A stretch of DNA of 48,267 bases from a virus (lineage: Duplodnaviria; Caudoviricetes). Shown one piece after another: positions 27,627-47,214 of this stretch. The stretch lies in IMG/VR virus record IMGVR_UViG_3300026026_000024, positions 1-48,267 of that record. One strand, given 5' to 3'. Under the pieces are notes generated by a model. It did no database searches, was not told the DNA's origin, and was given only the letters and a program-made list of their open reading frames with translations. Position 1 is the stretch's first letter, and each line of letters begins with the position of its first letter. The translations under genes were made by a program, and so were the position numbers.

Positions 27627-29534
27627 TTATTGAGCATTAATTATATCAGCTATTCTATTTCCTAATTGTATATACCCCACTGTTTCCAAATGCGATACTG
27701 ATTCGCCAGATTTCCATGTTAGATCACTCGTGTTGATCAGATAGTATTCAGAAACTGCTGTATCATTGGCTTCTTTCGCATCATTTACTACGCTAACATA
27801 AGGATATGTTGCGTTAGGCTCATTCGGTTTACATGAGTAAAAAGGTAGATTACCGTAATGCGATCTGACTGCAGATATAAAATTAACCTCATTTACCCTA
27901 TAAGCGGCAGACCAATTATCTTCATATCCATCTGTTTCGCCCTGAAACCAAATAATCCCTTTTACTGAGTAGTTAAAATGTTGCCCTATGTATGTAATAA
28001 TCGAATCCGTATGGTTTTTAAACTTGTCAAAATACTGCCCTACGGTATCTACAGACCAAGAGGTTCCGTATTTGAAAAGCCTCGTACCTCCCCATGCGCA
28101 CTTAATCACACATGGTTTGTGATTTACAGGCAAAACAATCTTTTTAAGAAATGAATTTTCAAGTCCGAAATAAGGTTGTCCAGATGTGGGCCAGTATGAG
28201 TTATAAGTTTTGGGGTTTATCGGCTCTATCTTATACTTTGTGGCAATATATTGATCATACTTGATACCATAATAGTACGCAGGACAATCAGTCAATGCGC
28301 CCTGTCCTGCTGCATTGGATTGCCCGATTAGAAACCAGACATCAAGAGTTTGTTTTTGAGTTGCATTTTCCATTGCAGTAAGTTGACTTCCGCTTAATTT
28401 ACGATTGACAGAAATGATGTTTTTAAGATATATAGAATCTGAAATATCAGAAAAAACATAATTATAATAGTTCGATACAAAGTCTGTAGATAATTTATTT
28501 CCATCCCAGAAAGAATTCGGATCGTATAAGGTATGATTCATTTTTAATTTTGTTTCAGCCCTATTATGACTATGCTTTTCAGCGGCGAAAATACCAGTAA
28601 ACACCCTACTATAGACAGTGCTTATTGTTCCCTTTTTAATCGCTGTATCACCGGCTGCCGAGAACGGAACGTAAATGTCAGGTATACCTTCGTATTGATA
28701 AAACATATAACCTTTTTGCAAGTTATAATGATAGTAATCCTGTTTTCCCCACCGGTCATGGAGTGTTCCACCAATTAAAAGATGTTTTCCTTCTCCAGAG
28801 GTATCGAAAATCTTAAGACCATAACCTTCTGCAACCGGGTATAATCTACCGTCTACAATCAACTTCCATGCCTTACCACATTGGCCAGGATTACCGCCAA
28901 TATACCAACCAGCTGCAGGCATTGTTCCTAATCCCGTATAAGTCTTAGTATAGGTCTGCTCATTATGTCCGTCGAACTTAACTATAAGAGTAGCGGTTCC
29001 GGATCCTCCTGTTCCGGTTATATTTAACGAAAGTCTATATTTTGTTTTAAGATAATATTTGATATTTGTCAGATTGGCCGTGGACGATGTACCTAACGTT
29101 AGCGTAAAAATAGTATCGTTCATCCGTAGGTACAACCGGTTCAGAGATGACCCGTCATTGTAGGTTGAATGAATCATCTGTTTTCCAGATTGAGAAACAT
29201 TATCAAACTCCCCTTCCCACGAAACCGTAAAGTTGTTGGGATTTATGTATGTATTTGGGATGATAATATACTTGTTAGTAGCAGAATCGTGGTAACAATT
29301 GCTTTGAACCAAATCCAAATCATTGTTGTTTCCGCTTCCGTCAATCCATTTATTCAAGGCGAAATTAAGTGTGTCTGAAATAAATAAAGTATCATAGCCG
29401 TTCTCCGCCTTCACCCTCCCTATGTCAATAGTGCCGGAACCGGACGAGGCAACCGTTTCGTTATCCAGGTCAATAGTTTGGTTATACGCTACAGAGCATA
29501 ACGCTAATAAGAGTAATGTTAGTAAGTTTTTCAT
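27627..29534 (-). CDS. Signal-peptide-bearing LamG-like + SGNH sialate-O-acetylesterase (SASA) protein; putative tail spike/depolymerase
   Basis: [42 protein letters not shown]-terminal H. Confidence 0.8.
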
Positions 29535-30040
29535 AGTGTTGAATTATGGGTTTGACGATTTAATGTGTTTGGTGGAGTATAAGATTTACCAATTATTTCA
29601 TATCCCGGCCAATTTCTTTTAATTCTTTTTCTGACTGAATTATCAGATATATCCAATCCCATGCCAGCGCTTCTGAATGAGGGATATATTTTTTCATTAA
29701 CCCTTATTGATATGCCTGTGAAATTATTTCCAAATATTGGCACATTGCGACCTCTTCCCTTTTTCTTCATATCATCCATATTATCTTGATTTGTACCAAC
29801 AAAAAGATGATCAGGATTGACACATGAAGGATTATCACATTTGTGACAAACAAGCATTCCTTTAGGAATTTCATTAACAAATAAGGCGTATGATAACCTA
29901 TGCGCCATATAAAATTTACCATTTATAATCATCCTACCATAACCTTTATTGTTTTTACTTCCCTTCCATTCCCAACATTGATTATTATTAATAATAGATT
30001 TTTCTATTATTTTTTTCTTTACTTTTAAAGATGTTTGCAT
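29531..30040 (-). CDS. HNH (His-Cys type) homing endonuclease
   Basis: CWEWKG...AHRLSY...[24 protein letters not shown]. Confidence 0.9.
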
Positions 30041-30218
30041 GATATATTTGATTTTATACCATAAAAGTAAGTATTTAAATGATAATCCGATTACAATTTT
30101 AAGGCTATATTAGCCACCATTAAATTAACCTGATATCACTCAGCTTAATGGCTCTGCATTCCCTCAACCGGTAGGGTAAGTTGATTAGACTTGTTTTACG
30201 TTCATTATCATTCAAAAA

Positions 30219-30587
30219 TTAAGCCTTTTTGCTTTCAATCCATTTCAAAACTGCACCGACAAGAAGTTCAATTGCGCCCTTGAAAATCAATCCTTCTGAA
30301 TCTTCATCCAGACCAGGAATGTCAACGAGTGAATTGAGTAAATCGGTTGCTGCAAGTTCAGCACCTTCCAAATCTTCTTTAATTGCTGCATCTGCAATGG
30401 CTGCCAGCTTTACTTTCAGTTCGGCTTTCAGTTTGTCAATTACCTGATCATCAATAAGAGTAATCAGTATTTTGGCTAAATAGCCGTCAACAAGTTCCAA
30501 GAAGCCTTTCAGTTTTACGGCTTCGTCTACTTTTTCGGCAAGAAACTTCTCCTGCGCTTTGTTAAAGATCCCTTTTTCGTCTGCCAT
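30219..30587 (-). CDS. Hypothetical helical protein in the lysis region
   Basis: 122-aa ORF. Confidence 0.65.
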   Translation of the reverse strand: MADEKGIFNKAQEKFLAEKVDEAVKLKGFLELVDGYLAKILITLIDDQVIDKLKAELKVKLAAIADAAIKEDLEGAELAATDLLNSLVDIPGLDEDSEGLIFKGAIELLVGAVLKWIESKKA

Positions 30588-45293: not shown

Positions 45294-45721
45294 TTCGAAT
45301 AGTGAATTATCAAAGTATCCGCCGTTGAGTTTCCTTTATAAAGTGTCGTTACCCAATACTGACCTACTATATTATCAGCCCTAACTGTCTGTCCCATTAC
45401 CGAATCACCCTCGAAATACACTATTGATGCGCTCGTTAACGGAATAAGAGCTGTTAAAGCTACAGGCAGTTGGAAATGTTCCCCGTCTACAGATTCACCA
45501 CAAGCGATCTGAGCCGTTGAATTAGTGGCAAACGAGGGAAACTCATACCATATCAAAGCACCGTTAGGCGCACGTAACCTCTTCGCAACCGTCTCACTCG
45601 TACCTGTCATAGTAGCCGTGAATATGGTATCGTTCTTAAGAACTTTACCCCAATCAATAAGCTGTGATTTAGCCGGTACAAGAAACGCTACGAAAAAGGC
45701 TAAAAGAATTATCTTTTTCAT
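45290..45721 (-). CDS. Signal-peptide-bearing small beta-sandwich protein in the neck module
   Basis: MKKIILLAFFVAFLVPAKS-Q; sequons DTI, DSV, DTL. Confidence 0.75.
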   Translation of the reverse strand: MKKIILLAFFVAFLVPAKSQLIDWGKVLKNDTIFTATMTGTSETVAKRLRAPNGALIWYEFPSFATNSTAQIACGESVDGEHFQLPVALTALIPLTSASIVYFEGDSVMGQTVRADNIVGQYWVTTLYKGNSTADTLIIHYSK

Positions 45722-46782
45722 GTTATTATTATGGATGATTCGTTAAAAAGTGACTTTCTTACTCTATCTATTTCAATCTTCAGCTTTTGATTCAATCCCA
45801 CATTACGGGGTACATTCTCTCCAGTCTGTGTTTCCAGGTCGAAGGCTGCAATGTCAGGTAGTTTTTCATTTACCCTTTTCGTTGCGTTTATCCTTCCGCT
45901 GGTTTTAATTAACTCCAGGACACGAATAGCAAACGAGTAGCCCTGGATAGGGTCAAACATCGCTTGATTTGTCATTATAAGATTCGTGTAATCACAGAAA
46001 GAGGATATGTCAAGGTTCAGTCCCCAGCATTCCGACCGGTATGAAAGAGAGCCAATATCAAACAAATTTGTTCCGTTAGGTTCAACGCTTATTGAGCGTA
46101 ACCTGATACCGTTAAATGTTGTGTGTTTGTTTGCGCCGTTCCATACACGGTCGTATGCTTGGACAGTTCCTAAATCATTCTGAAAATATCCAAAATAGAA
46201 TTTACCCGATCCATACGTCGAAGTCTGATTGTAAAGTTTTTGATTCAATTCCAACTTGTAAAAGTCGTCGGCTACGGAAGTAGCACTAAAATCAGCAACT
46301 TTACTTTTCTTTGATGAATGAAATAGGTAGAGTTTAAAAGCCTTTACTCCGTTGAATTGCAGTATAACACTATTAAGCACATTTACAATATTAGCGGTTT
46401 CAGGTACTGAGATTTCAAAACCTACAAACTTACCCTCGTTTGCGATTGCGTTCTCGAACACATTCTCACGAGTGTAAAGCATCCTGTTCTCAATCAAATC
46501 CCTTTTACCCTCGAAAACACGGTTTAAACCTGTTTTAATCGCTTCTTTCTGCCATGTAAGTATCAAAGCGTTAACTTCAGCATCGGTGATGTCAGGATCA
46601 TCCTGGCAGTCTAAAATGTTAATGAAGTTAGCCAACGAATGAAACTCATCATACGTAAGCCCTGACCTTGTGACTTTGGAAGCAGCATCAAGTTTACCCG
46701 TGTAACCGGTTTTAGTGGGTTCCTTTAATCCAATACGCTGGTAAAGTCCCGTCGTGCCTAATATGGTCGTACTGTCGTACAT
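45718..46782 (-). CDS. Putative head-tail adaptor protein
   Basis: 354 aa two genes downstream of the capsid. Confidence 0.5.
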   Translation of the reverse strand: MYDSTTILGTTGLYQRIGLKEPTKTGYTGKLDAASKVTRSGLTYDEFHSLANFINILDCQDDPDITDAEVNALILTWQKEAIKTGLNRVFEGKRDLIENRMLYTRENVFENAIANEGKFVGFEISVPETANIVNVLNSVILQFNGVKAFKLYLFHSSKKSKVADFSATSVADDFYKLELNQKLYNQTSTYGSGKFYFGYFQNDLGTVQAYDRVWNGANKHTTFNGIRLRSISVEPNGTNLFDIGSLSYRSECWGLNLDISSFCDYTNLIMTNQAMFDPIQGYSFAIRVLELIKTSGRINATKRVNEKLPDIAAFDLETQTGENVPRNVGLNQKLKIEIDRVRKSLFNESSIIIT

Positions 46783-47214
46783 TTATTTTGCTATATACTT
46801 AGTAGTTAGCAATGTGGTATCGGCGGAAGTTCCTACGACTTTAAGCCTGTACATATAATCGTATGTTTTAAGCCTAAAGCGAGCTACTCCCGCGCCCACA
46901 ATAGTAAATGTATCGTTTGTACAGATTAAATCAGTGTCAACAGTGGTGTTCATGGATTTCCATGAAGTTCCATCAACTGATTTTTCAATGGTAATAGTAC
47001 CATCCGAAGTTCCACCGTAAGCATCAGTACAAAGAGTTTGAATGCTTAAATCCATAACCTTCGCAAATCCACCTACTGCCGGAATATAGATATAATCCGT
47101 TTCTGCATTTTTGTTGGTGTCTGCTTCTGAAGCCTTAACTGATTTATACGGAACCTGTGCGCTGGCTGCGATTGCTACAATCGCAAAAACCAACATAAAG
47201 ATTAACTTTCTCAT
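46783..47214 (-). CDS. Signal-peptide-bearing capsid-accessory (decoration-like) protein
   Basis: MRKLIFMLVFAIVAIAASA-Q; TIEKSVDGTSW...YRLKV beta-sandwich; directly after the capsid gene. Confidence 0.75.
   Translation of the reverse strand: MRKLIFMLVFAIVAIAASAQVPYKSVKASEADTNKNAETDYIYIPAVGGFAKVMDLSIQTLCTDAYGGTSDGTITIEKSVDGTSWKSMNTTVDTDLICTNDTFTIVGAGVARFRLKTYDYMYRLKVVGTSADTTLLTTKYIAK

Follow-up and report, generated by a model that had tools for sequence, protein, structure and literature searches.

Five proteins encoded by the late genes of a tailed phage carry N-terminal leaders that end before a glutamine, and we lean towards a route in which these proteins pass through the host Sec pathway, are cleaved by signal peptidase I (SPI), gain a pyroglutamate terminus and host O-glycans in the periplasm, and join virus particles at lysis. 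The DNA analysed, here called the window, is the whole 48,267-nucleotide IMG/VR virus record IMGVR_UViG_3300026026_000024 (Duplodnaviria; Caudoviricetes), which is one whole circular siphovirus genome with a terminal overlap of 99 bases, classed with direct terminal repeats. Under the proposed route the particle cores (capsid, neck, tail tube, tape measure protein (TMP) and hub) would be built in the cytoplasm as usual, while the leader-bearing proteins, exported by host Sec and cleaved by SPI, would have the glutamine at position +1 turned into pyroglutamate, receive the host O-glycan and gather in the periplasm as the cores assemble; capsid decoration and fibre or spike parts would then bind finished particles once the inner membrane fails and the compartments mix. 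The parts of this proposal differ in probability. Judged from sequence, export of the five proteins is very likely, and glycosylation, given export, is likely; attachment to the virion is reasonably likely for the protein encoded directly after the capsid gene (hereafter the post-capsid protein) and for two proteins in fibre positions, and rather doubtful for the fifth, a protein with a SASA domain (27627-29534). We infer export, pyroglutamate formation and glycosylation from known Bacteroidota biology, and virion membership is favoured indirectly by where the genes lie, by fold class and by the annotation, based on mass spectrometry (MS), of leader-bearing proteins in two Cellulophaga phages.

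Leaders and domains of the five proteins

The five open reading frames (ORFs) singled out by a sequence-only reading of this genome are all present on the minus strand, and translation together with a leader rule bears out its description of them. Each N-terminus has a basic n-region, an uncharged hydrophobic core and a Gln at residue 19 or 20, the leaders ending ASA/Q20 in 46783-47214 (143 residues, leader 47158-47214), AKS/Q20 in 45290-45721 (143 residues, leader 45665-45721), LSA/Q19 in 35546-37414 (622 residues, leader 37361-37414), TFG/Q19 in 32970-35543 (857 residues, leader 35490-35543) and AYN/Q19 in 27627-29534 (635 residues, leader 29481-29534). By the same rule, which uses hydropathy and charge and is our own rather than SignalP, small residues occupy positions -3/-1 in all five, the Asn at -1 of 27627-29534 being atypical. 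Applied to the 82 minus-strand ORFs of at least 60 amino acids, the rule was positive in seven: these five, a 77-residue lipoprotein-like ORF with a Cys and without Gln just past the late terminator (26607-26840, minus strand), and a shadow ORF within the tube gene (43759-43947). It picked out none of the capsid, portal, scaffold, adaptor, terminator, tube, TMP, hub and Dit-like proteins, in agreement with the earlier statement that capsid, portal, tube, TMP and hub lack signal peptides. Because every one of the five start codons overlaps the upstream stop codon or lies no more than two bases from it (that of the post-capsid gene overlaps the capsid stop), the leaders are likely to be true N-termini.

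The three long proteins combine domains of carbohydrate-binding or -modifying kinds. The 622-residue protein, encoded directly after the hub and Dit-like genes in a fibre or spike position, has BNR/Asp-box repeats and a coiled-coil-like C-terminal end, and two full-length-type homologues among its 32 matches; the 857-residue protein, in a spike position, has a LamG-like lectin domain (residues 73-221) and a right-handed beta-helix (622-799). The 635-residue protein ends in a SASA acetylesterase domain (397-631), and is encoded downstream of the lysis genes, a phosphoesterase gene and an HNH gene, one gene ahead of the terminator (27172-27148). The fibre or spike positions first assigned to all three therefore stand for 35546-37414 and 32970-35543, which follow TMP, hub and Dit, and fall for 27627-29534; likewise, 45290-45721 had been labelled a neck gene and is flanked instead by the genes for the adaptor and the presumed tail terminator. 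By sequence, no solved structure in the PDB matched the three long proteins, and no virion-anchoring N-terminal domain or S74 chaperone was found in them among PHROG, PDB or PF13884 matches. Cultured-phage matches numbered none for the 622- and 635-residue proteins and two weak LamG records for the 857-residue protein. No peptidoglycan hydrolase domain lies behind any of the five leaders, the GH108 lysin being separate and leaderless, and Pfam and NCBIfam gave no type IX secretion system or lipoprotein family match among the five. Since the window holds no leaderless fibre-like gene between hub and terminator, the task of receptor binding probably falls to the leader-bearing proteins or the hub.

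The second 143-residue protein (45290-45721) has a leader in all three of its homologues and is likely to be of the same fold class as the post-capsid protein. A profile comparison of the two gave no match, and no Pfam domain was found in either; both lie near the same virus-dominated clusters in the Atlas, the nearest clusters being 86-98% viruses, and one weak Atlas row, below the naming bar, places 45290-45721 near a cluster with 16% Bbp16. These neighbourhoods bear on the notion that the phage captured genes for secreted host proteins, whose leaders and O-glycosylation motifs (described below) would be inherited leftovers. Such an origin is plausible for the SASA gene, as the three long proteins are made of domains common in cells and have few close relatives. 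Against it, the small family is viral and has retained leader and Gln although its mean column identity is 22%, and the five starts are coupled to late-gene stops, so that for the set as a whole we find capture scarcely probable.

The post-capsid family

The +1 Gln is invariant in an alignment of the post-capsid protein with its close homologues (15 close matches, one of them the window's own, and two loci; 17/17). A distant search with a profile of the mature part, leader left out, delimited a family of 379 clusters, and among the best 150 of these, 129 have a leader by our rule and 125 a Gln at +1; of the remaining 21, ten carry an internal leader within a fusion, and most of the others are truncated or lie outside the family. 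Leaders are thus conserved in homologues, as the sequence-only reading would have it. No sequence match to the post-capsid protein was found in the PDB, Pfam or PHROGs, locus searches with this protein alone or with alignment A2 returned no loci, and a cultured-phage search with two family representatives matched only MD05.

The fusions, seen in 10 of the 150 matches (P0124, P0136, P0145, P0146, P0149, P0150, P0151, P0158, P0163 and P0166) and in 5 of 75 loci (among them L050:6001-6660, L052:5728-6402, L055:6007-6663 and L064:5938-6576), consist of a soluble N-terminal domain of ~65-95 residues, an internal hydrophobic segment, AxA-Q and the jelly-roll domain; in six loci (L057, L059, L067, L074, L077 and L088) the small domain is instead a separate gene between the capsid and leader genes. 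Such fusions could keep a capsid-binding domain at the inner membrane; along with the separate small domain, they lend some colour to the idea that the leaders are uncleaved membrane anchors, which would tether the assembly of heads or tails to that membrane or retain the proteins there until lysis. We regard that idea as quite improbable, for even the fusions retain the small-residue cleavage site and the Gln (10/10 for the Gln), as expected for SPI cleavage under the Q-rule described in the available text of PMC5837995, and the excess of glycosylation motifs points to a periplasmic mature part.

We examined 39 capsid-related loci (38 of 41, three that end in the capsid gene being left out, plus L007), 36 of them with downstream genes; the gene after the capsid was a leader gene in 24, with Gln in 23, and the adaptor directly in 12, and a leaderless gene occupied the slot in none of the 36. 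A second search yielded 76 further loci, 75 with a family ORF (N-terminal leader in 69, fused in five, leaderless in one), although many loci are repeats of one phage and the locus counts are not independent. The upstream gene in this second set is mostly an HK97-type capsid (PF05065 matched in 23 of 27 tested, one below cut-off), and the slot clearly travels with the capsid gene across two different capsid lineages. Its occupants vary. A relative with 84% capsid identity has there a leader+Gln gene whose match is confined to the first 25 residues; elsewhere the slot is filled by other leader+Gln genes (L007:3337-3783, L011:5574-7737, L016:6160-7756 and L027:10938-12771). Two leader genes share it in five of the 24 loci, and it is sometimes a pair of one long (362-570 residues) and one short (about 145 residues) leader+Gln gene, an arrangement that suggests a head fibre plus its base.

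An excess of the O-glycosylation motif D[ST][AILMVT] accompanies the leaders. The five proteins hold 25 motifs against 9.95 expected, a count reached by none of 5000 shuffles (3 against 0.5 in 45290-45721, 9 against 2.0 in 27627-29534), and 29 leaderless window proteins hold 13 against 22.5 expected. The post-capsid family holds 299 against 98.5 expected; three of its columns keep the motif in 89, 85 and 87 of 130 sequences, exchanges between S and T and at the third position stay inside the allowed letters, and the sites fall in loops or strand starts of the model described below. Members of the HK97-linked subfamily have mostly one motif site or none. Across 117 loci the leader+Gln set shows a 1.88-fold excess compared with 1.00 for leaderless ORFs, and N-glycosylation sequons are not enriched (0.96). 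According to the accessible portion of PMC8550257, O-glycosylation in Bacteroidota requires export, and together with that requirement the motif excess supplies a likely reason for export. Substrates of this system, and SPI-cleaved Bacteroidota proteins whose +1 Gln is cyclised to pyroglutamate (PMC5837995, available text), have the same leader anatomy, the same +1 Gln and the D-(S/T)-(A/I/L/V/M/T) excess; the window genes differ in being phage-encoded, within a virion operon, with the virus particle as their proposed destination.

For the mature post-capsid protein, a model from 15 sequences is an all-beta sandwich with a mean predicted local distance difference test (pLDDT) value of 79.9, the single-sequence fold being unusable (pLDDT 44.7). 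Its best solved matches are XepA (Z 9.5-10.3, root-mean-square deviation 2.4, 101-102 residues aligned) and YomS (Z 9.3), and most of its best matches among viral models are tailed-phage proteins that are uncharacterised; the fold-match lists contained no solved cement chain. Cement proteins share the XepA topology, as stated in the available text of PMC6834076, and the modelled fold, predicted to be a jelly roll, is compatible with a cement or decoration role. The likeness to the BPP-1 cement protein cited there, and to XepA and YomS (PDB 6i56, 6i5o; Z 9.3-10.3), is that of a small beta-sandwich. A prediction of two capsid with two mature post-capsid chains gave 'no answer' (score 0.00), and we draw nothing from it about binding. 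In known cases, cement proteins are synthesised in the cytoplasm and bind there, and the decoration proteins Soc and Hoc of T4 bind after capsid assembly. As with jelly-roll cement and decoration genes, the window family sits directly behind the capsid gene and is apparently dispensable, being absent from 12 of 36 loci; unlike cement proteins it has a cleavable-type leader (129 of 150 members), the Gln and glycosylation motifs. In the cultured phage Pan5, gp7 is a leader+Gln homologue (E 8e-7) and is listed as 'Cement' in the Pan5 supplement (Table S2), on the basis of cryo-electron microscopy or AlphaFold2, which of the two being unstated.

Virion parts or exported effectors

Leader-bearing proteins with structural annotation based on tandem MS occur in two cultured phages, Cellulophaga phi19:1 (gp101-104) and phi18:3 (gp085-087), seven in all; the Gln at +1 is present in three of the former and in all of the latter (6/7 overall), and the database records of the two phages make no mention of leaders. 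In phi19:1, a siphovirus, gp101-104 are the only MS-annotated proteins after two large post-TMP proteins, a position like that of the window's 622- and 857-residue genes, and a C-terminal stretch of gp101 matches solved tailspike chains. These phages differ from the window in having no leader-bearing post-capsid jelly-roll gene, gp89 of phi19:1 being a 63-residue soluble protein. As a separate observation, the first 118 residues of phi19:1 gp102 (L126:2563-4896) and phi18:3 gp086 (L047:4545-6902) are 82% alike despite different genome layouts, and this common stretch suggests a docking module.

The main alternative is that the five are late effectors, exported to work in the envelope or the lysate without ever becoming stable parts of the virion; a place in the structural operon would then provide the right timing and high expression. 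They could mask receptors, exclude superinfection, digest capsule or matrix, or serve as decoys. The domains themselves (LamG, beta-helix, BNR and SASA) suit such roles, none of the leader-bearing proteins matched a PHROG virion family at E below 0.04, the post-capsid gene is absent from a third of the loci as counted above (12/36), and the position of the SASA gene behind the lysis genes makes 27627-29534 the strongest case. The nearest phage fold, XepA, is itself reported as exported and absent from mature particles (PMC6834076, available text), and Q-rule leader genes in Porphyromonas gingivalis phages have been read as possible envelope modifiers in the accessible part of PMC10367356. Nevertheless, effectors would hardly be expected to stay beside the capsid gene in two capsid lineages, nor to include a leaderless member in that same slot; moreover, the Cellulophaga proteins are both leader-bearing and annotated as structural, and the window offers no other receptor-binding candidate. 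We therefore rate the effector explanation as unlikely.

Several further observations weigh against the route through the periplasm to the particle. GOLD domains tie with XepA as fold matches, the fold being a common one. The window's own post-capsid protein has only one strict motif; control patterns across the 117 loci are also raised (E[ST]x 1.55, reversed 1.51), as is a control set of 30 capsids (52 motifs against 35.5 expected, 1.5-fold). At L108:6010-6369 the post-capsid slot is taken by a family member that has no leader and is preceded, 8 codons upstream, by an in-frame stop; it is the one such case in 75 loci, and it is either a cytoplasmic version or an assembly error, so that export may not always be needed. 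(A link between loss of the leader and loss of the first motif in this member was dropped, a similar GSP stretch being present in the leader-bearing L102.) Polaribacter phage P12002L has no post-capsid gene. The Cellulophaga leader proteins do not match the window's five (phi18:3 and phi19:1 being compared up to base 50000) and show no motif excess (0-2 each against 1.8-4.2 expected), which makes export and dense glycosylation separable; their detection by MS possibly reflects vesicle or lysate carry-over, or co-purification, and in Cellulophaga phi18:1 none of 14 structural-module genes checked has a leader.

The closest cultured relatives, finally, were deposited under hosts outside the Bacteroidota, Pan5 as a Pseudanabaena phage and MD05 as a Rhodobacteraceae phage, and this too speaks against a route built on Bacteroidota biology. 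Both carry Bacteroidota-style leader+Gln genes (L004, Pan5: 5945-6346, 18042-20963 and 20965-22086; L003, MD05: 21038-21451), and the deposited host labels may thus be wrong; Pan5 gp18 has 14 motifs against 3.4 expected, and the available text of PMC9837993 mentions bacteria co-existing in the Pan5 host culture. The window's capsid protein matches six cultured records (MD05, Pan5 and Polaribacter phages P12002L/S), and a more distant member of the capsid clade matches 46, from Flavobacterium, Bacteroides, Croceibacter and Parabacteroides phages. A genome-based host search gave one match, on a 3.8-kb contig of a metagenome-assembled genome labelled Leptospirales and possibly misbinned. Among sequencing runs, none from RNA was listed as holding the sequence, and one wetland DNA run may be where the window itself came from. 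On sequence grounds we infer a Bacteroidota host for the window phage.

Tailed-phage particles are assumed to be complete in the cytoplasm before lysis. If the route through the periplasm is real, it adds to tailed-phage assembly a step that occurs only when compartments mix; phages would borrow periplasmic folding and host glycosylation without glycosyltransferases of their own, and particle stability, adsorption and recognition could depend on the producing host. That many Bacteroidota tailed phages assemble in two compartments in this way, the virion dressed in host glycan that records its last host, is a tentative extension to which we give slightly less than even credence. Material for testing the idea already exists: the post-capsid gene is present in two cultured phages, Pan5 and MD05, and MS data are available for phi19:1 and phi18:3.

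Precedents for the separate steps exist. Filamentous phage coat proteins use host Sec and signal peptidase, assembling at the membrane without lysis. In mycobacteriophages, phage-encoded glycosyltransferases add glycans to virion proteins in the cytoplasm; the likeness lies in glycans on a tailed-phage particle, and the window route would borrow the host's export-dependent system instead. Mycobacteriophage virion glycosylation is reportedly the subject of Freeman and colleagues (2023), cited as reference 60 of PMC12691614. Phage-encoded glycosyltransferase genes are also mentioned in the available text of PMC11256854. The fOg44 lysin is a Sec-exported endolysin (PMC6834076, available text); such endolysins are not virion parts, and the window's endolysin is leaderless. 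Closest to the present case are the P. gingivalis phages, in which five function-unassigned genes were likewise predicted by SignalP6 to expose Gln and were read as possible outer-membrane modifiers, with no link to virions or glycosylation in the accessible part of PMC10367356. Q-rule leaders in function-unassigned phage genes were thus already known from these phages. To these the window adds a large family of decoration-like proteins in which the leader and the motif sites are conserved; the family is tied to two lineages of capsid protein, and two cultured phages (Pan5 and MD05) carry it. Searches of the literature outside subscription papers and bioRxiv supplements listed no work that describes virion parts of tailed phages being exported.

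Late-operon layout and other genes

All late genes are on the minus strand, in the order terminase, portal, presumed scaffold, capsid, adaptor, presumed terminator, tube, completion, TMP, presumed hub and Dit-like, followed by lysis. The terminase large subunit (3220-4590) and portal (1224-2900) precede the presumed scaffold (143-1015), which runs on into the capsid gene across the 99-nucleotide terminal overlap. The leaderless major capsid protein (47214-48257) matches phrog_7231 (E 3e-32) as well as the Pan5 major capsid and P12002L; its family profile also matches a capsid chain in PDB 9ww9 (E 9e-17), chain F of which is a solved 372-residue capsid protein related to this clade; a search for a paper on that structure gave none. 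The leaderless head-tail adaptor (45718-46782) matches phrog_8189 and has the position of Pan5 gp8 ('adaptor'). For the presumed tail terminator (44781-45293) and the tail tube (43682-44608), both leaderless, the labels come from Pan5 synteny, with phrog_8145/phrog_8193 matches for the pair. Next come three more leaderless proteins, the TMP (39977-42727; PF20155) and, labelled from position only, the presumed hub (38319-39980) and the Dit-like protein (37415-38326). The lysis genes (32161-32950) encode an 82-residue protein with a C-terminal hydrophobic segment, presumed from it to be holin-like, and a leaderless GH108 endolysin (PF05838, PF09374). An intrinsic terminator at 27148-27172 (minus strand; 9-pair stem with 7 GC pairs, followed by a T run) likely ends the late operon. 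A promoter scan stayed at chance level (75 against 74.3).

Among other genes, the portal has, at residues ~270-300, a zinc-finger insertion (CxxCxGxG) that recurs in L001, L002 and L007. A 175-residue HNH-like ORF (13437-13964, minus strand) is nested in another frame within a 372-residue ORF (13006-14124) whose ends look like one interrupted gene, possibly by an intron or an inserted homing endonuclease. A DNA-methyltransferase-like gene, so labelled only from the look of its translation, apparently lies in pieces around an HNH-like ORF (19204-20596, minus strand), and a phage-encoded sigma factor of the extracytoplasmic function (ECF) type is found at 15353-15796 (minus strand), where TIGR02937 scores above its cut-off.

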